A stretch of DNA of 32,517 nt from a candidate division WOR-3 bacterium (GTDB taxonomy: Bacteria > Hydrothermota > Tepidihabitantia > SM23-42), in the NCBI GenBank assembly GCA_020343595.1, contig CP070802.1:1044814-1077330 (forward strand), in the 5' to 3' direction. The translations under genes and the position numbers were made by a program. Position 1 is the stretch's first letter. Every line of letters starts with the position of its first letter. The notes under the pieces were generated by a model. That model saw nothing but the letters and a program-made list of their open reading frames with translations. It was not told the DNA's origin and did no database searches. Shown piece by piece: positions 11,490-32,517 of the stretch.

Positions 11490-11660
11490 CTACTCTTTTT
11501 TGCCTGCCGCAGCATCCTTTTCTTTCTTTCTATCGAGCCGGACGCTGTTGGAACCGCACTTCGGGCATGTCCTTTCCTGCATGACGCCCTTAGTGTACGG
11601 TAATTTGAATTCGGCATCACATCTCAAACACTTGAAATTTCTTTCTTCAGTTTCGGGCAC
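11490..11660 (-). CDS. 56-aa zinc-ribbon (FmdB/rubredoxin-like) protein, absent from ORF track
   Basis: GGAGG SD, GTG start, MPETEERNFKCLRCDAEFKLPYTKGVMQERTCPKCGSNSVRLDRKKEKDAAAGKKE then TAG; CxxC...CPxCGS; fills the gap in the operon. Confidence 0.85.
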   Translation of the reverse strand: MPETEERNFKCLRCDAEFKLPYTKGVMQERTCPKCGSNSVRLDRKKEKDAAAGKKE

Positions 11661-11711: not shown

Positions 11712-14138
11712 CTATTTCTTTTTCTTGGCTTTTGCCTTTTCTTCTTCTTCGGTCAGGACCTTGATCGTATGTTCGATCTCGTCTTTTGTCACTTTCTTTC
11801 GTAATTCTTCGATATCCTGCATCGTTTTTTGAAAACGTTGTCCTTCTGCGGCGCTTATCCATTCGAGCAGCAATCGTTCGGGCCGGATTTCCCATTTTTC
11901 CAGTTTATCCCAGAGTTTTTCGACACGCTTCTGGGTCCAGCGGTTCGCGTCGATATAGTGGCAGTCAACGTAGTGACATCCGGATACGACGACCATGGGC
12001 GCGCCCTTTTTGAAGGCGTGGAGGACGAATTTTTCATCGACCCTGCCACTGCACATCGTTCGGATCAAACGCTGGTTCGGCGGATATTGAAGTCGCGCGC
12101 CGCCGCATGTGTCGGCGCCAGCATAGGAACACCAGTTGCAGGCAAAGACGACTACCTTCTCCTGAGGATCTTCAGCAAGGTGGGCGTCGATTTGAGTTAT
12201 GAGCTGTTCATCCGTGAAGTGCTTCATTGTCAAAGCGCCAAACCGGCACTCTGCGGCACATGTACCGCATCCCTTGCACAGGGCTTCGATATAGGAAATC
12301 GTCTTCTTTTTCGGATCAACCGTGAATGCTCCGTATGGACACACCCTGGAACATGTTGCACAATATCTGCAAAGATCAGTATTCAACGTGGATGTGATCG
12401 CTTCCAGTTTTACCTTCCCTGCAGAAAGCAGTGTTTCGGCTCTGGCCGCGGCCGCGCTTGCCTGGGTCACCGAGTCCTTGACGTCCTTCGGTGCCTCGGC
12501 ACACCCTGCAAAATAGATCCCGGTCGACGGCGCATCCACCGGTTTTAGTTTCGGGTGCGCTTCCATGAAGAAGCCGTCCGGCGTTTTTGAGAGCGTGAGC
12601 AACTGTTGAACCTCGGGCATATCGAGTCGAGGGGTTACGCCGACAGACAGCACCATCATGTCGAATTCATGTTCTTCGATCTTGTTGGAGGTGGTGTCTT
12701 CGACCATCACCTTCAGGTTGCGGGATTTGGGGTCTTCGGCGATCTCTCCGGGAATGCCCCTGATGTACTGAACCCCTGCTTCCTTGCTCCGTTTGAAGAG
12801 GTCCTCGAAACCCTTGCCGAACGCCCGTATATCAATGTAGAAAACCTTTGCCTGGATATCCGGATAGTGGTCTTTCAGCAGCAGTGTGTCCTTGATCGTA
12901 TTCATACAGCAAATATTACTGCAGTACGGCTTACCGATCTTTTCACAGCGCGAGCCCACGCATTGTACAAAACCCACCGTCTTCGGCCTCTTCCTGTCGG
13001 TAGGACGGATGAAGTGACCGTCAGAGGGCCCTCCGGCTGACAACAGCCGCTCAAATTCCATACTCGTTACGACGTTTTCGTATTTCGTGTAGCCGTATTC
13101 CTGCAAAATTACCGGGTCGAATACGTCCATTCCTGTTGCTACGATTACGGTGCCGACCTTGAATTCGAGCGTTTCGTCTTTTGCATCGTAGTCAATGCAT
13201 TTCTTGTCGCATTTTTCGGCGCACTTGCCGCAGGCAATTGGATTGGTGCCCAGACAGCTTTCCATATCGATCAGAGATGCCGACGGCACGGCCTGGGGGA
13301 ACGGGATGTAAATGGCTTTTCTTGACGATAACCCCTGCTGGTACTCATCCGGAACGACGACCGGACAAACTTCGGCACAATCGCCGCATGCGGTGCACTG
13401 TGTCTCGTCTACGTAACGTGTTCTCTTGAGAACCTTAACGTCGAAGTTACCGACGTATCCTTTGATCGACTCGACTTTGCTATTGGTTAGGAGCTTTATT
13501 TTGGGATGTCGACCGACATCCATCATCTTCGGGCCGAGTATTCATATCGCGCAATCCATCGTCGGATACGTCTTCGCCAGCTTGGACATCAAGCCGCCAA
13601 GCGATGGTTCCTTCTCGACGAGGTATACCTGGTAGCCAGCGTCAGCCAGATCGAGCGCCGACTGCATCCCGGCTATCCCACCACCGATCACCAGAGTTGC
13701 TTTTTCGACTGGTATTTCCTTTTCATCCTGGGGTTGCAGGTACCGAGCTCGGGCCACGTACGCCTTCATGATATCCTTGGCTTTCGTCGTTGCTGCCTCG
13801 CGGTTGCCCATGTGGACCCACGAGCACTGCTCCCGGATATTCGCCATGTCAACCAGATATGGATTCATACCCACCGAAGCGACGCATTCCCTGAAGGTTG
13901 GTTCGTGCATGCGTGGCGAGCAAGCGGCGACGATCACCCTATCGAGTTTCTCTTCCTTGATCGCCTTCTTGATTTCGGCTTGGCCGGGTTCCGAACACAT
14001 GTAGCGGTTCTTGGTGCTGTACACGACATTCCCGAGCTTCTTGGCATCCTCGACGACAGTGTCGATATCGACTGAGCCGGCAATGTTTGTGCCGCATTCA
14101 CAGACAAAAACGCCGATCTTCAAATCATCCTTCGGCAT
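11712..14138 (-). CDS. hdrA: Selenocysteine-containing HdrA fused to C-terminal MvhD (~808 aa, Sec199)
   Basis: ORFs 13542..14147 and 11712..13526 are in one frame joined by TGA 13542-13544 (TMDCAI-U-ILGPKMMDVGRHP). VFVCECG, GGGIAG, QCVGSR..YCSNICC, ferredoxin motifs, C-terminal CNWCSYAGAD/GCHYVDCHY. Confidence 0.92.
13504..13521 (-). promoter_or_regulatory. Putative bacterial SECIS element
   Basis: GGAUGUC-GGUC-GACAUCC perfect 7-bp stem starting 20 nt after the UGA. Confidence 0.8.
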
Positions 14139-14160
14139 CTTGATCACCCCCTTTCTGGGT

Positions 14161-14352: not shown

Positions 14353-15237
14353 TCATGCTTTTGCACTTTCCTTTATTTTTTCCAACACTTTGTCGGCTTT
14401 GATCCGGTGAGTATGTAGACCCACTTGTTCTGGCTCCAGTCCCTGGGCAAGACCCAGAAGTTGAAACAGGTAGATCACCGGAATGTTGTAAGTTTTTCCT
14501 TTTTTACGGGAAATCAAAATCTGTCCAAGATCAAAGGAAGAAAAGCACGTCGGACAGACAAGTCCCATGCAATCGGCGCCGCTTTCTTCGATCGAGGCGA
14601 AGATTGTCTCGGTCATTTCAAGAGGCAGCTCTTCATCCATACATCCCTTGCCGCAGCACAGGAGTTTCTCTCTGTGGTCAAGGGGTGTAGCACCCATCGC
14701 GGCGACGAAATCGTCGAGGATGCTGGGATAGTCGGCATCATCAACATGCATGATCTGGCTCGGCTTTAGTATGTGGCAACCATAGTGGATGGCGACGGTC
14801 ACGCCGTCGAGTGGTCGCTTGATTGACTTCTTCACAACATCAAGGCCTAATGTGTCCCGGATCAAAACGACCGCATGGTTAATTTGCGCGGTGCCTCTGT
14901 ATTCTTTGTTTATTTTCTTCAGCCGCCGGTTCACTTCTGCCTTTGCTTCAGGATCTTCGTCGAGTGTGTATTTGGCTTCCTTCAGAGTGGAAATGCAGCC
15001 CGAGCACATGGTGATGACATCAAGACCCATTTCCTCGGCTATTGCCAGATTACGAGCAGCGATCGTCAGCCACTTGATCTTATCGCGGGCTTTGAAATAA
15101 ATAGGGTCAGGGCAGCATGTGAAACCGTCGACGTCGACTAGTTCGACACCAAGGTTAGGTAGAGTTTTTCTGATTGCGAGTTCCATCTGCGGATACTTGA
15201 GGGGCATCATGCAGCCCCAAAAAGGAATTACCTTCAT
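14353..15237 (-). CDS. hdrB: Heterodisulfide reductase subunit B
   Basis: Two CCG domains: FWGC..CCPDP..CSGC and HYGCH..CCG..CPTC. Confidence 0.92.
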   Translation of the reverse strand: MKVIPFWGCMMPLKYPQMELAIRKTLPNLGVELVDVDGFTCCPDPIYFKARDKIKWLTIAARNLAIAEEMGLDVITMCSGCISTLKEAKYTLDEDPEAKAEVNRRLKKINKEYRGTAQINHAVVLIRDTLGLDVVKKSIKRPLDGVTVAIHYGCHILKPSQIMHVDDADYPSILDDFVAAMGATPLDHREKLLCCGKGCMDEELPLEMTETIFASIEESGADCMGLVCPTCFSSFDLGQILISRKKGKTYNIPVIYLFQLLGLAQGLEPEQVGLHTHRIKADKVLEKIKESAKA

Positions 15238-15240
15238 GGT

Positions 15241-15741
15241 TTATTTATCATCCTTTGTTACACTCTGCGGGTCTTCGAGTATTTCCTTCAGCTCGTCGAT
15301 CGGTATGGTTTTGAGCGGAGGAAGACCCAGCTCCTGCCTCCGTCTGCTAACAGCTGATGTAACCGTGACGCTGACGCCGGTTTGCGCTATATTCTCCGAG
15401 AGTTTCGCAAGACTTGCCGGTGCTTTCTGTCGCTGTACGGCCATATTCTTTAAGGCGATGATTACTTCGATCGGACGGACATCCTGCGGACAGCGCTCAT
15501 AACATGAATAGCAGTTCGTACACAGCCATATTGGTGAATCTTCACCGGTCAATGCTTCTTCCATGCCCAGCAGCGTCTTTAACAGAATGACGCGGGGGTT
15601 GAATTCCTCGGTGAATCGTGCCGCCGGGCACACCGCAACGCATGCGCTGCATTGGTAGCAGTAGTTGTGGTGTTTGCCACCCTGGATTTTATTCAGTTTC
15701 TCACGAAATCGAAAGTCAACCTTTATTTTCTCCTTGGCCAT
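15241..15741 (-). CDS. hdrC: Heterodisulfide reductase subunit C
   Basis: CYQCSACVAVCP and WLCTNCYSCYERCPQ; adjacent to hdrB. Confidence 0.92.
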   Translation of the reverse strand: MAKEKIKVDFRFREKLNKIQGGKHHNYCYQCSACVAVCPAARFTEEFNPRVILLKTLLGMEEALTGEDSPIWLCTNCYSCYERCPQDVRPIEVIIALKNMAVQRQKAPASLAKLSENIAQTGVSVTVTSAVSRRRQELGLPPLKTIPIDELKEILEDPQSVTKDDK

Positions 15742-17450: not shown

Positions 17451-20400
17451 TCATCCTTCAAACAACGCCTCTAATTGAGCTTCGATCTGTTCGCTTCGGA
17501 AGTGCTTGAGGTCGATGGCGCCGGTTGGACATGCAGCGACACAAGTACCGCAACCCTTACAGAGCGCTTCATTGACGCGTGCGGCAAAACCGCCGTCTTC
17601 TTTTTCAACCAATTCTATTGCGCGGAACTCGCAGACTTCGGCACACCGGCCGCAGCCGCGGCAATACTCTTCGATCACCGTCGATGTTATCGGTGCCAGG
17701 GTGATCTTATCGCGGCTGAGCAAGGCAGCAACTTTGGATGCAACAGCAGACGCCTGGGAGATCGAATCACCGATATCCTGGGGGAACTGACAACAACCAC
17801 ACAGGAAAACGCCTTCGACCGTCGTTTCCACGGGACCAAATTTCGAGTGACGTTCCAGGAAGAATTTATCGGGACCGCGCGGAACCTTGAATAATTCGGA
17901 AAGATGGGCGGAGTCGGCGGCGGGAACCATTCCCACCGAAAGCACGACGAGGTCGACCGGAATGGTAATGTCGGCATCGATATCCGACGACGGGATGGTG
18001 ACGGCTTCTGCTCTGCCCTTGCCAGTGATTGCCGGCTCGCCTTCGTACGGCAAGAAGAGGACACCAAGTTCCCTTGCCTTGCGATACATCCGTTCGGCGC
18101 CTTTTGAATACACCCTGACGCCGCGGTTGAGAATTGCCACATCGATTCCCCTTTCCCTCAGATAGATCGCCTCCTTTATCGCTGCCTGGCAGCAATAGCG
18201 CGAACATCCAGGGTTTCCGTCGTCCCCTCGCGAACCGACACACTGGAAAAAGGCGACGGATCTTATGTTATCGATATCGCCTGAAAGTATCTTCTGTTCC
18301 AACTCCATGTTGGTTACGATATTCGGGAACTTGCCGTAGCCAAAGCACTTTTTTGGATCATAGAGTGCCGATCCAGTGGCTAGCACGATAGCGCCGACCG
18401 TATATTCATTTTCCTTTGCTTCGCGTTTCACCTTGACCTGGAAGTTGCCCACGTAACCAGTGACATCAAGGAGTTCCGTGGAAGTCAGTAGCTCACCGCC
18501 TGCTTTTGTGAATTCAGCGGTGAGTTTCTCCATGATATCCTTTCCTTTACGAAAACTTGGATAAATGCTCGATAGATGCGATACGAGGCCACCGGGAACC
18601 GGCAATTTCTCGATTACTTTGACGCTAAAGCCGCGCTGTAACAAATCGATCCCGCATCGCAGACCAGTGATGCCGGCACCGATGATGGCGACATCCCGGT
18701 TAACCGATAGTTCTTTCATGAAAAGCGGCGCCAGCTTTCGGACCCGCGCTACCGACATCCTGACCAGCTCCTTTGCCTTGTCGGTCGCCTTTACCGGTTC
18801 CTTCTGATGCACCCAGGAACATTGATTTCTGATATTCGCGATGTCAAAGAGATACGGATTGAGACCAACTGCAGTCAATGAATCCTGGAAGCTCATTTCA
18901 TGGGTCTTGGGTGTGCATGCGGCGACGACGACCCGGTTCAGTCTGTGCTCGGCGATCCTCTCCTGAATCTGATGTTGGGCTGTCTCGGAACATGCGAAGG
19001 TGTAGTCTTCTGCGAATACGACATCGGGCAGCATCTTTGCGTATTCGACCACGCCTTTGACATCAACCACCTTTGAGATGTTCGGGCCGCAGTGGCAGAC
19101 AAAGACACCGACCCTTGGTGGGCCCGACACGTCAATTTGTTCGATCTCTTTCTCCTCGATTGGAAGTTCATGCCCTTCCAGGAAACACGCCGCCTTGACC
19201 GCGGCACCACTGGCCTCGGCGATCGAATCGGTGATGTCCTTTGGTCCAGTAGCACAACCGCAGACAAGAATACCTTTCTTCGTTGATTCGAGTGGCATGA
19301 TCGCAGGCTCTGAATTCTTGAAAAAACCATCGTCATCGATCTCGATATCGAGCACTCCGGCCAGTTCTCCGCAGCCTTTCGAGGGGATCAATGCCGATGA
19401 TAGGCATACGGCATCGAACGTCATCTTTCCCGAGTGTCCTTTCTCGTCTTCGTAATGTATGATCAAATTCCCCTGGCCATCGTCAATTACCTTTGAGGGT
19501 TTGCCCTTGACATACTCCACGCCCTTCTCGAGAGAACGATTGTAGAATTCCTCAAATCCCTTGCCAAAGGCTCTGATATCAATGTAGAATACGACAATCC
19601 TGGCGTCTGGATAGTGCTCTTTCAGGACCAGGCTGTCCTTGATGGTGTTCATACAGCAAATACGGCTGCAATAGTTGATATCATGACGCATGTTACGAGA
19701 GCCGACGCACTGGATGAACGCAAAACGCAAGGGCTCCTGTAATTCCTTTCCAAGCGGGAGCTCACCGGAACTCGGGCCATCTTCGCTCATGAGCCTTTCG
19801 ATCTCAAATGAAGTATAGATATTCTTGAAGCGTTTGTATCCGTACTCACTGGCCTCCTTTGGATCGAGATAATCGACACCGGTGGTCACGATGATCGACC
19901 CTACGTCCAGATCGACAAATTCGTCGGTCATATCGTGGACAATTGCATTCGGTTCGCACACCTTCACGCATTCCATGCATTCTGAACAGCCGGCACAGCT
20001 GAGGCATCGATTCGATTCTTTCTTTGCCTGTTCTTCTGAGAATCCCTGGGCGACTTCTTCGTAACTATTCTTCGCCTTATCCACGTCCAGCATGGGCATA
20101 GCCGTTCTTTTCTCAGCCCTTATGTCCTCTGGAATTTCAATATCCTCATCCTTCACCCGATCATCTTTTTTCTTTCTGTTTTCCTTGAGATCCACGCCTC
20201 TGATGAACCGATCGATCGATTCGGCAGCTTCTTTTCCTGCAGCAATCGCCTCGATAACCGTTGCCGGACCGGTGACCGCATCACCTCCGGCAAAGATACC
20301 GGGAATGCTCGTTTGCAGCGTATCCGGGTCCACTGCGAAAGTTCCCCAACGGGTCAACTCAAAATTCTCTTCTTTGGCCAGGAATGAAATGTCGGCCGCC

Positions 20401-21848
20401 TGGCCGATCGCCATTATTACCATATCGAGGTCCATGGTGAATTCCGAGCCTTCTATAGGTATTGGTCTTCTCCGGCCCGAGGCATCAGGTTCGCCAAGCT
20501 TCATTTTGATGCATTCCATGCCCGTGACTTTGCCATCTTTGCCAAGGATCTTCGTAGGATTAGTCAGGTAATGGATCGTGATGCCCTCTTTTTCCGCTTC
20601 GACTATCTCCTCTTCATTTGCGGGCATTTCCTGGCGCGAACGTCGGTAGACAATGAACGCTTGTTCGGCGCCGAGACGTAGTGCGGTGCGCACCGCATCG
20701 ATTGCCGAATTACCACCGCCAACGACGGCCACTTTCTTACCCACCGGCGTCTGGGGATTGTGGACCGCCTTATTGAGAAATTCAACACACATAGTGACGC
20801 CCTGCAGATCTTCGCCTTCGATCCCCATCTGTTTCTCTTTGGCTGCACCAAGTCCGAGAAACACAGCCTTGTGTTCCTGCTGCAGGTCCTTGATGCTGAA
20901 ATCCTTGCCTAGGGCAGTATTGGTCTTGATCTCGACACCCCAACTCTCTATGTAATCCAGATCTCGCTGGAGGGCGGCTTCGGGCAATCTGAAGCGCGGT
21001 ATTGCCCAGTACAAAAGGCCACCGGGATGATCAGTGGCTTCGAACACGGTCGGACGATATCCTCTCCTGGCAAGAAAATACGCGGCCGACAAGCCGGCAG
21101 GACCGGCGCCGACGACGGCAACCTTTTCTTTGTTCAGTTCAGGACTGGGTGGTGGGGTTTTCTGTTCGTGATCAGAAATGAACCGTTTGAGCTGGGCAAT
21201 TGCCAGCGGTTCATCTACGTCCCTTCGTTTGCAGTCCGATTCACACGGATGGGTGCACACGCGGCCGCAGACAGCCGGGAATGGGTTATCCCGGCGTTCA
21301 AGTTCGAGCGCTTCCTGATACTTGCCCTGTGAAATTAGCGCGATATATCCCTGAGCATTGACTCCTGCCGGACATGAGTACCGACACGGTGGTGAGCCCT
21401 TTTTCTCAATCAAGAATTTGTTGGGAACGGCCTGGGGGTACTGACGATAAATTGCCGCCCGCTTTGAAAGTGCCAGTTGAAACTCATCTTTAATATGGAC
21501 CGGGCAAACCGTTGGACACTCGCCGCATCCCGTACATTTGTTCCAGTCGACAAATGTTGATTTGCGTCTGACTTTCACTTTGAAATCCGGTGCCTCACCC
21601 TCGACGCCGACAACTTCGCTGTTGGCGAATATCTCAATGTTTGGATGCCGACCGACATCCATTAGTTTGGGGCCGAGGATTCAGCCCGTACAATCCATCG
21701 AGGTGAAGATCTTATGGATCTGGGATGTTCGACCGCCCAGGCATGGGCCACGCTCGACAAGGTAAACCTTGAAACCAGCATTGGCCAAATCCAAAGCGGA
21801 CTGAACACCAGCCACGCCTCCACCAATGACGAGTGCTCCTTTTGGCAT
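17451..21848 (-). CDS. Selenocysteine-containing HdrL-type protein (HdrA module with GltD/NfnB-like insertion + second HdrA module; ~1465 aa, Sec56)
   Basis: A 55-codon in-frame segment [14 protein letters not shown]...SMDCTG precedes TGA 21681-21683, then [13 protein letters not shown] continues into the 1403-aa ORF. ATG lies 3 nt after the gamma-subunit stop. Confidence 0.92.
21642..21661 (-). promoter_or_regulatory. Putative bacterial SECIS element
   Basis: UGGAUGUC-GGUC-GGCAUCCA 8-bp stem with one U-G pair; loop 27 nt after UGA, same as in the other Sec-hdrA. Confidence 0.8.
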
Positions 21849-30404: not shown

Positions 30405-30835
30405 GCCTCCTTGGCGGCTGCCTGTGTTTTCAATTCGAGTGGTCCCAATGCAGACATTTCGTCTATGAATTCGTTGACGACCTTCTGAAATTTACCGCCT
30501 TCGTTAGCCGAGATCCATTCCAGCCGTACACGTTGAGGAGCGATACCGAGTTCTTTCAGCAGGTTCTTGAGTAGTGCGATCCTTTTATGAGTACGGTAGT
30601 TTCCTGATACATAATGGCAGTCACCCGGATGACAACCAGCCACCAATACACCCCAGGCGCCTTTTTTCAAGGCATCAAGTATCAGCTCCGGGTCTATCCG
30701 GCTTGAACACATTGCTCGGACAATTCTGAAATGCGGTTTCATTTGGAGCCTCGAAGTACCGGCCGCGTCGGCTCCAGCATAGGAACACCAATTACAGCAG
30801 AATGCAATTATTTTGGGGACGGCGTTACTCTTCAT
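30401..30835 (-). CDS. mvhD: MvhD-like [2Fe-2S] protein
   Basis: FCCNWCSYAGAD, MCSSR, GCHPGDCHY, WISANEG; ATGA overlaps at both ends. Confidence 0.93.
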   Translation of the reverse strand: MKSNAVPKIIAFCCNWCSYAGADAAGTSRLQMKPHFRIVRAMCSSRIDPELILDALKKGAWGVLVAGCHPGDCHYVSGNYRTHKRIALLKNLLKELGIAPQRVRLEWISANEGGKFQKVVNEFIDEMSALGPLELKTQAAAKEA

Positions 30836-32517
30836 TTTTCCTCCTCTCCTAATGCTGCGCCAACCATGGCCTTTAACTGTCTATTCATGAACCAATGCTG
30901 CTGTGAGGCTCCAGAAGGACATGCTGCTGAACACGAGCCGCAACCCTGACAGAGAATTTCGTTCACCTTGGCGACCCTCTTGTCATCCTCGAGTTCGGTC
31001 TTTACGGCGTCATACGGGCAGACACTGACACACGTTGCACAGCCGCTACAGAGGTCTTCATCGACCACAGCGGTGATCGGTTCTACCGCGTACACTCCTC
31101 GGTTCATCAAACGTATTGCCCTTGAGGCAGCGGCACTCGCTTGTGCTACCGTGTCAGGTATGTCCTTGGGTCCCTGGGCGCAACCACATATGAACACGCC
31201 GTCGGTTAGGGTGTCTACCGGTTTGAACTTCGGATGTGCTTCCTGGAGAAAACCGCCCGGACTGCGCGTCATTCTGAGCACATCGGCGATCTTGCGAGTT
31301 CCTTCTCCAGGTTGCATACCGACCGATAACACGACCAGGTCGAATTCTGATTCAATTATCTGGCGTGCTAGCGTATCCTCGACTTTTAGCATGACTTTCT
31401 TGGTATCGGGGTCTTCGATCACTTCTGCGACCCTTCCGCGAATGAACTTGACACCGGTCCTTTGTGCCCTTTTGTAGTATTCTTCAAAGCCTTTACCGTA
31501 CGCCCGGAGATCGGTATAGAAGACATAGACGTCCTTTTTAGGATCGGCTCGCTTCAAGAGCTGCGACAGCTTCGTTGCATACATGCAGCAAATTCTTGAA
31601 CAATATTCATTACCGATCTGCTCGTCCCGAGAACCGACACATTGGATGAAGGCTATCCTTTTCCCGATTTTTCTTGTCGGCCGACCTTCAGCATCGTGGA
31701 CTATCATGCGTTCCATTTCCAGGGACGTTATGACGTTTTCGTTCGTACCGAAGCCGTATACTTTTTTCTCGCGGGCATCAAAGATATCGTAGCCGGACGC
31801 AACGATTATGGTATCGACCTTGATCTCTACTTTCTCGGGTTTCTGCTCAAAATCCACGGCGTCGTGCGGGCAGACTTTCTTGCAATTACCACACTTTCCT
31901 TTCTGGAAGTATATGCAGTTTGGTTCGTCGATTAGGTATTTATACGGGACGGCAAACTCAAAGGGAACATATATCGCCCGGCGGGTTGTCAGTCCCTGTT
32001 CGAATTCATTGGGCAATTTCACGGGGCACTTTTCTTCGCAGATACCGCATGAGACACAATTATCATTGACATATCTGGGTCTTTTGTTAACGGTCACCTC
32101 GAAATTGCCGAGAAAGCCAGAGATCTTCTCCACTTCCGAATTGGTGAACAGAGTGATGTTGGGATGACCCGGGACATCAGCCATCTTTGGAGAGAGAATA
32201 CAGGCTGCGCAATCTTCGGTCGGAAAGGTTCTTGACAGCTTTGCCATCTTTCCGCCGATCGTTGGTTCCTTCTCGACAAGAAAGACCTCGAAACCGGCAT
32301 CACCGAGATCAAGAGCCGCCTGGATGCCGGCAATGCCAGCGCCGACAACGAGTACTCGTTTACCGATGGGCATGGTCTTTCTTTCGAGGGATTCATCGAG
32401 TTTCGCCTTCGCGATGGCGATGTTCACCAGATCCTTTGCCTTTTGGGTTGCCAGTTCTGGTTGGTCATAGTGCGGCCAAGAGCACTGTTCGCGGATGTTT
32501 GCCATCTCGAATACGTA
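30832..32517 (-). CDS. hdrA: Heterodisulfide reductase subunit A, Cys-type, 5'-truncated by window edge
   Basis: Frame open to the window end; NIREQCSW, GAGIAG, TFPTEDCAACILSPKM, QCVGSR..YCSRICC, ferredoxin motifs. Confidence 0.93.
   Translation of the reverse strand, partial: YVFEMANIREQCSWPHYDQPELATQKAKDLVNIAIAKAKLDESLERKTMPIGKRVLVVGAGIAGIQAALDLGDAGFEVFLVEKEPTIGGKMAKLSRTFPTEDCAACILSPKMADVPGHPNITLFTNSEVEKISGFLGNFEVTVNKRPRYVNDNCVSCGICEEKCPVKLPNEFEQGLTTRRAIYVPFEFAVPYKYLIDEPNCIYFQKGKCGNCKKVCPHDAVDFEQKPEKVEIKVDTIIVASGYDIFDAREKKVYGFGTNENVITSLEMERMIVHDAEGRPTRKIGKRIAFIQCVGSRDEQIGNEYCSRICCMYATKLSQLLKRADPKKDVYVFYTDLRAYGKGFEEYYKRAQRTGVKFIRGRVAEVIEDPDTKKVMLKVEDTLARQIIESEFDLVVLSVGMQPGEGTRKIADVLRMTRSPGGFLQEAHPKFKPVDTLTDGVFICGCAQGPKDIPDTVAQASAAASRAIRLMNRGVYAVEPITAVVDEDLCSGCATCVSVCPYDAVKTELEDDKRVAKVNEILCQGCGSCSAACPSGASQQHWFMNRQLKAMVGAALGEEEK

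Follow-up and report, generated by a model that had tools for sequence, protein, structure and literature searches.

Selenocysteine (Sec)-containing heterodisulfide reductase subunit A (HdrA) has been listed among the bacterial selenoproteins since 2006 at the latest, with 16 bacterial examples given (PMC1794560), and the family also figures in a 2026 review (PMC13188914). Here, we describe an HdrA gene of this kind in a 32,517-nucleotide (nt) stretch of the genome of an uncultured sediment bacterium of candidate division WOR-3. This stretch is called the window, and all coordinates below refer to its whole length. The gene is read on the minus strand. It encodes HdrA fused to MvhD and contains an in-frame UGA codon that is very probably decoded as Sec.

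The Sec-HdrA of Methanococcales belongs to the same family and has its Sec at the same residue position, in a DCxxU motif beside the flavin adenine dinucleotide (FAD) and the N-terminal cluster. In Methanococcus maripaludis, Sec197 was reported and a cysteine (Cys)-Sec relay between FAD and the N-terminal cluster was proposed (PMC13518236). In an alternative proposal, residue 197 is a ligand of the N-terminal cluster of the partner (PMC9012536). Both papers assign the residue to the low-potential side of bifurcation at the flavin (PMC9012536, PMC13518236). Three differences separate the archaeal case from the window gene. The Methanococcales selenocysteine insertion sequence (SECIS) lies in the 3' untranslated region and serves an archaeal Sec pathway (PMC13188914), whereas that of the window gene lies inside the coding region. 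MvhD, or VhuD, is a separate subunit in Methanococcales but is fused in the window protein. Finally, the archaeal enzymes come from methanogens and have the heterodisulfide of coenzymes M and B (CoM-S-S-CoB) as substrate, whereas the window protein comes from a non-methanogen.

Desulfobacterium autotrophicum HRM2 has Sec-containing HdrA1/HdrA2 as well as HdrL proteins, which are HdrA-glutamate-synthase fusions, with MvhD encoded adjacently (PMC2702500). Sec-HdrA is also found in Syntrophobacter fumaroxidans and other anaerobes (PMC1794560). An in-gene SECIS, the coexistence of Sec and Cys Hdr paralogs and the order HdrL then mvhD are shared with the window (PMC2702500, PMC1794560), and Desulfobacterota orthologs have the same UGA and the same hairpin as the window gene. 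The window gene differs from those of D. autotrophicum and S. fumaroxidans in that its relatives belong to another phylum (Candidatus Stahlbacteria/WOR-3) and that HdrA and MvhD form one polypeptide. This fused architecture is that of HdrA2 in Methanosarcina acetivorans HdrA2B2C2, and hdrB- and hdrC-like genes are neighbors in the window. The M. acetivorans protein is, however, a Cys form from a methanogen (PMC5296606), whereas the window protein is predicted to be a Sec form and comes from a bacterium.

In the place of its Sec, in having a SECIS within the gene and in its Sec/Cys paralogs, the window case matches the known Sec-HdrA family. New here are the lineage, whose relatives are labelled WOR-3 or Stahlbacteria, together with the fused-MvhD form as a Sec protein in it, and the record of one hairpin common to many phyla almost unchanged. 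In the excerpts retrieved from the literature on WOR-3 with selenocysteine, or on Stahlbacteria with heterodisulfide reductase, we found no selenoprotein description. In a 2025 survey of 181 WOR-3 genomes, hdrABC was prevalent, and the sole match to 'selen' in the excerpted text was selenate (PMC12542636).

An HdrA2-MvhD gene with an in-frame UGA

The features of the gene, all on the minus strand, are the following.

11712..14138, minus strand: predicted selenoprotein gene for HdrA2-type heterodisulfide reductase subunit A fused to MvhD (translation; NCBIfam, Pfam and PDB matches)
14144..14151, minus strand: putative Shine-Dalgarno-like sequence GGGGGTGA, 5 nt upstream of ATG 14138 (read from the sequence)
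13542..13544, minus strand: in-frame UGA, probable Sec codon at the second Cys of DCxxC (alignment to homologs and structures)
13522..13541, minus strand: 20-nt spacer from the UGA to the hairpin, codons ILGPKMM, with ordinary synonymous variation (ortholog codons)
13504..13521, minus strand: probable bacterial SECIS hairpin, with 5' arm 13521-13515, GGUC loop 13514-13511 and 3' arm 13510-13504 (fold and conservation)

With TGA read as Sec (U), a single frame of 811 residues runs from GTG 14147 to the stop codon at 11714-11712, and U202 is its sole non-standard step. A first-pass annotation of the window had quoted the codons ATG GAT TGC GCG ATA TGA ATA CTC GGC CCG AAG and proposed that the frame continues across the TGA, joining two open reading frames (ORFs) into one HdrA-MvhD fusion. 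These codons are present, in frame, on the minus strand, with the TGA at 13544-13542, and the joined frame is open throughout. With genetic code table 11, the same frame is cut into ORFs 13542-14147 (201 amino acids, ending in ...TYPTMDCAI) and 11712-13526 (604 amino acids, beginning with MMDVGRHP). Translation from ATG 14138 instead of GTG 14147 would give 808 residues and Sec199 in place of Sec202. This ATG is the likelier start because GGGGGTGA stands 5 nt upstream of it.

The joined protein matches the NCBIfam model HdrA2 NF040770 over its full length (query 10-791 against positions 1-776 of 777) with 1169.4 bits for a cut-off of 1100. A Pfam FlpD/MvhD domain occupies residues 665-781. Among PDB chains, HdrA chain 5odc_A matches residues 8-655 (782 bits) and MvhD chains match residues 658-786, with 139 bits for 5odc_D. 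The predicted product is an HdrA2-type heterodisulfide reductase subunit A with fused MvhD. U aligns gap-free with Cys197 of 5odc_A. It also aligns with position 197 of 9sfi_A, a Methanococcales Sec-HdrA in which, as in chain A of 9t1s, the PDB sequence has X, a non-standard residue.

The 120 best matches in the protein collection comprise 114 full-length homologs (804-824 amino acids, 62-65% identical), all of which have Cys at the site, in a DCxxC motif. The other six are fragments of 592-609 amino acids that are more closely related (87-91% identical) and begin with (M)MDVGRHP right after the TGA. One fragment cluster includes the record 'methyl-viologen-reducing hydrogenase subunit delta [candidate division WOR_3 bacterium]', and DNA relatives at 86-88% identity bear the title Candidatus Stahlbacteria. 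The first-pass annotation had placed the TGA at the second Cys of the HdrA DCxxC motif, where HdrA is a known selenoprotein, and had expected gene callers to split the gene. The placement agrees with 114 of 114 full-length homologs, with residue 197 of the solved HdrA and, for the known selenoprotein, with Sec197 of M. maripaludis and the catalogued bacterial family (PMC13518236, PMC1794560). The splitting is what the fragments from the nearest public relatives display.

A conserved hairpin downstream of the UGA

The perfect hairpin GGAUGUC-GGUC-GACAUCC that had been noted after the TGA is found at 13521-13504, with 7 base pairs (bp). It begins 20 nt past the UGA, and its loop begins 27 nt past it. 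It is both the minimum-free-energy and the centroid structure, at -10.2 kcal/mol. The bacterial SECIS (bSECIS) model in the legend of Fig. 2 of PMC13188914 has an apical loop of 3-9 nt on an upper stem of 4-16 bp, a G at loop position 1 or 2, 16-37 nt from the UGA to the apical loop and a minimum free energy of -7.5 kcal/mol or lower. The hairpin agrees with all four criteria, with a 4-nt loop on a 7-bp stem, the loop sequence GGUC, a distance of 27 nt and -10.2 kcal/mol. The GGUC apical loop attributed to the SECIS of Escherichia coli fdhF in the first pass is indeed found in NC_000913.3, and this element is likewise a stem-loop just 3' of the UGA. Its loop begins 18 nt past the UGA, compared with 27 in the window. 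Its upper stem has an unpaired U and runs into a lower stem back to the UGA, whereas the window hairpin is a plain 7-bp helix with no conserved lower stem.

Hairpins of this type are rare in the genome. TGA trinucleotides number 97,432. A stem of at least 7 bp with a GGNN tetraloop lies 12-39 nt past 158 of them (0.16%). Only 10 of the 158 have a GGTC loop, and four of these 10 stand at in-frame TGAs linking long ORFs.

Conservation was measured on 28 ortholog loci from the same class (72-100% protein identity). All 28 keep the TGA. The five hairpin codons D-V-G-R-H have a summed codon entropy of 0.44 bits, for a mean of 1.33 bits per eligible column. Their entropy is the lowest among 499 five-codon windows (rank 1), and none of 100,000 random sets was as low. 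Three of the four zero-entropy columns of the gene are inside the hairpin.

The fourth is the codon preceding the UGA (13545-13547, minus strand), which is ATA in 28/28 orthologs of the class. In other phyla this codon is ATC or ATT.

A scan of genome contigs, with one genome per species, yielded 79 loci. L097, one of these loci, does not cover the site; like L067, it had no motif match and was left out of the counts. TGA is at the site in 78/79 loci from at least eight named phyla, and in 76 of these 78 the hairpin recurs without a shift of register. In the other two, L092 and L094 from Planctomycetota, TGA at the same site is followed, 21 nt after the UGA, by a different 7-bp stem, GAUGGCG/CGCCAUC, whose 9-nt loop opens with GA. 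Cultured carriers of the UGA and the hairpin include Desulfogranum japonicum DSM 18378, Desulfobulbus rhabdoformis DSM 8777 and Desulfogranum marinum DSM 2058. Of 113 aligned Sec-form sequences (97 distinct), drawn from eight or more phyla, 111 have the hairpin along with the TGA. The Sec forms come from Stahlbacteria/WOR-3, Chloroflexota, Cloacimonadota, KSB1, Eisenbacteria, Planctomycetota, Acidobacteriota and Desulfobacterota. Pairing holds in 99.3% of 679 cells. The variable pair 41-48 is UA in 71 cases, CG in 15, UG in 9 and other in 2, and 90% or more of the 113 sequences have G in the first two loop columns (43 and 44). An optional eighth pair, 35-54, was dropped, being unpaired in 21 of 34 WOR-3 relatives.

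Cys forms provide the control. Cys-type HdrA paralogs are without the hairpin in 16/16 cases. These include the third HdrA of the window (30835-32517, minus strand), a Cys form reading EDCAACILSPKMADVPGHP with the codon TGT at the site. A TGA flagged in this third gene was rejected as a Sec codon, as it is the gene's own stop. Cys-form orthologs, a sharper control, encode the same peptide, 72/114 reading DCSICVLGPKMMDVGRHPR. Sec-form and Cys-form orthologs were compared in 151 sampled genomes belonging to the same class as a Dehalococcoidia record. All six Sec-form orthologs keep 7/7 pairs. Five Cys-form orthologs with the same or nearly the same peptide keep 3, 3, 4, 5 and 6 of the 7 pairs, and their losses of pairing are at synonymous positions. 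One of them, L159, has the identical peptide MMDVGRHP with 5/7 pairs and reads GTG GGG CGC in place of GTC GGT CGA. Nucleotide conservation therefore tracks the TGA and not the peptide. The hairpin, put forward in the first-pass annotation as a bacterial SECIS just 3' of the UGA, thus agrees with the published bSECIS criteria and is held by selection.

Public metagenomes were consulted over 13300-13800, where four runs gave 371 contigs of at least 90% likeness. No letters other than TGA, and in particular no TGC or TGT, occur at 13542-13544 among these contigs; as contigs lose rare variants, this check bears on the presence of TGA and not on the absence of alternatives. Over 13487-13554, summed contig depth leaps from single digits to 150-2600 in the four sediment/mangrove runs, because contigs of many other organisms share those ~45-60 letters. 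These are DNA contigs only; no RNA run is listed for the gene.

The UGA and the 18-nt hairpin GGAUG(U/C)C-GGUC-G(A/G)CAUCC may form a single Sec cassette of HdrA2-MvhD and HdrL genes, ancient and spread by horizontal transfer, a proposal that we put forward tentatively and hold at somewhat less than even odds. If it is true, SelB proteins of very distant bacteria would read one common SECIS, and the peptide Mx-D-(V/A)-G-R-H-P would be held by RNA as much as by protein.

A side branch of the family has TGA at both motif cysteines (D-U-x-x-U). It comprises L046, L047 and L059 from the family of the host, and L086, L087 and L095 from Cloacimonadota or uncultured organisms. All six loci have an extra 7-bp hairpin immediately past the second UGA, with a loop GAC or GUC, in two sequence versions that are a G-C to C-G swap apart. 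A 7-bp stem at this place is found in only 4 of 91 distinct single-Sec sequences. In this branch, where the two UGAs are 9 nt apart, two tandem SECIS elements may be predicted.

Decoding of the UGA

The genome assembly is a single contig of 2,368,485 bases; its completeness is 93.1%, and it includes 14,000 masked N. The genes selA, selB, selC and selD, whose presence had been proposed as a check, are all found above curated cut-offs. selA scores 543.5 bits (cut-off 267.9), selB 333.8 bits (cut-off 242.25) and selD 315.4 bits (cut-off 125). The tRNA-Sec, with anticodon tca, scores 75 bits in Rfam (cut-off 47). selD has its own in-frame TGA, in the context KCAGUASK. The four genes lie within 578.9-593.2 kb, with tRNA-Sec adjoining selB and selA.

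In our preferred reading, to which we assign a probability of roughly 0.93, TGA 13544-13542 is a Sec codon and the hairpin is its SECIS. SelB carrying Sec-tRNA(Sec) (anticodon UCA) would bind the GGUC-tetraloop hairpin 20 nt downstream, and Sec would be delivered to the ribosome instead of release factor 2. The result would be one polypeptide of ~808 amino acids, an HdrA2-type flavoprotein with a C-terminal MvhD domain. Sec would substitute for Cys197 of HdrA in the thioredoxin-reductase-like domain, beside the flavin. From there it may extend to the partner protomer's N-terminal [4Fe-4S] cluster, within the low-potential branch of electron bifurcation at the flavin.

The TGA could instead be a real stop in a split or decaying gene, giving a ~200-residue N-terminal piece and a separately started piece of ~600 residues. 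Table 11 does yield two ORFs, an ATG-ATG pair is located 6 codons past the TGA and the 592-609-residue fragment stands as a protein in public databases. Yet no Shine-Dalgarno sequence precedes the internal ATG, and a break at this point would sever the FAD-binding domain and remove a cluster ligand. Moreover, the TGA falls exactly at the Cys197 codon in 28/28 relatives and, across phyla, in 78/79 loci, and the frame stays open to either side of it. Synonymous sites of the hairpin are constrained only in sequences that have the TGA. We therefore regard a real stop as hardly credible. A genome-wide reassignment of UGA to tryptophan or glycine (codes 4 or 25) is the least probable reading of all. 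Nothing beyond the open frame speaks for it. TGA otherwise acts as a stop, two other window genes (the third HdrA and an HdrL-like gene) ending in TGA, homologs carry Cys at the site and neither tryptophan nor glycine, and the genome has a dedicated Sec system.

The only rival worth keeping, although very unlikely, is that SelB reads the UGA and the SECIS with a Cys-charged tRNA-Sec-like tRNA (selC*/tRNA-ReC), so that Cys is inserted. Such tRNAs are reported to decode UGA as Cys with a SECIS following (PMC13582414, citing Vargas-Rodriguez et al. 2018), and the incompleteness of the genome leaves room for one. However, the sole tRNA-Sec-like gene above the Rfam threshold is the one adjoining selB and selA. 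ARAGORN found 32 tRNAs, among them a single one with anticodon tca and one normal tRNA-Cys(gca), and neither Rfam nor ARAGORN showed a tRNA-ReC. In addition, selA and a Sec-type selD make sense only if Sec is made. A 98-nt 'tRNA-Cys(aca)' called by ARAGORN (C1:1299967-1300064) was considered as a second UGA reader and rejected; its acceptor stem is mismatched, its extra arm is long, and it is probably spurious.

Several points weigh against decoding as Sec through this hairpin. Both Sec insertion and the full-length protein are predicted from sequence for this organism. Unlike the SECIS of E. coli fdhF, the hairpin has no bulged U, and its loop is 9 nt farther from the UGA. Covariation depends on essentially one base pair. 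Within WOR-3 it is weak, as 2 pairs change on both sides, a number reached in 85/500 shuffles; 5/8 pairs are invariant in the WOR-3-only alignment of 34 sequences. In folding energy, the hairpin does not stand out from shuffled sequences (z = -0.08 for 66 nt and -0.43 for 47 nt). A search of 13300-13700 in Rfam (evalue mode) matched no family; that no curated bacterial SECIS model fits is uninformative. The SECIS argument therefore rests on rarity and selection. Finally, the missing part of the assembly and its masked N leave space for a second UGA-reading tRNA.

Gene neighborhood and significance

The features flanking the gene are the following.

14353-15237, minus strand: hdrB-like gene with CCG domains (Pfam)
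15241-15741, minus strand: hdrC-like gene, 4Fe-4S dicluster (Pfam)
17451..21848, minus strand: predicted second selenoprotein gene, encoding a 1465-residue HdrA/glutamate-synthase-beta-like (GltD-like)/HdrA fusion, HdrL-like (UGA and hairpin)
11490-11660, minus strand: 56-residue zinc-ribbon protein just downstream of the HdrA-MvhD gene, with a weak Zn_ribbon_8 match of 24.6 bits (below the cut-off of 34.4)

Because of gene order, the products of the hdrB-like and hdrC-like genes are probable partners of the HdrA-MvhD protein. More widely, the minus strand of the window is a long run of redox genes. Genes for a Cys-type HdrA, MvhD, HdrC-like and HdrB-like proteins, a ferredoxin and a flavoprotein are followed by two sets of 2-oxoacid:ferredoxin oxidoreductase subunits. 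Then come the 1465-residue HdrA fusion, MvhD, HdrD-like, HdrC and HdrB genes and, beyond an AT-rich gap of 205 nt, the predicted selenoprotein gene for HdrA-MvhD. The window showed no sulfate-reduction context.

The HdrL-like gene has its UGA at 21683-21681, in the context SMDCTGU-ILGPK. An 8-bp hairpin UGGAUGUC-GGUC-GGCAUCCA at 21661-21642 stands at the same distance from the UGA as that of the HdrA-MvhD gene. With table 11, only the part of 1403 residues past the UGA is called. The N-terminal HdrA half of the fusion has the putative Sec and is without the N-terminal cluster domain, and the C-terminal half has that domain and is without DCxxC. This matches the complementary arrangement of halves described for fused HdrA in PMC9012536. 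The HdrL-like fusion followed by MvhD resembles the Sec-'HdrL' then mvhD of D. autotrophicum (PMC2702500).

Elsewhere on the host contig, a row of genes (C1:1484000-1492500, L068, and C1:2145000-2149500, L069) encodes candidate selenoproteins that would be secreted, having signal peptides and C-terminal sorting domains of the type IX secretion system. Two candidates of ~650 residues contain U in the contexts ...SCUGATE... and ...SGUGTIE...; in both genes, a GGUC-loop hairpin stands 20 nt past the UGA. Further candidates are two Omp28-like proteins with UxxC, a 243-residue protein with DDMUPFC and an AhpC/TSA protein with WUPLC.

As a speculation, a short SECIS that varies so little between phyla could serve as a portable tag for introducing Sec into recombinant proteins. 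The predicted Sec is at an HdrA residue whose role is actively debated, as a cluster ligand or as part of a Cys-Sec relay to FAD (PMC9012536, PMC13518236). Natural bacterial Sec/Cys pairs, some of them from cultured organisms, are material for testing the role of this residue. The enzyme is now recorded as a fragment of ~600 residues, under the names 'methyl-viologen-reducing hydrogenase subunit delta' or 'heterodisulfide reductase subunit A'. Metabolic reconstructions of WOR-3/Stahlbacteria and of many sediment bacteria therefore miscount Hdr modules and miss selenium dependence.

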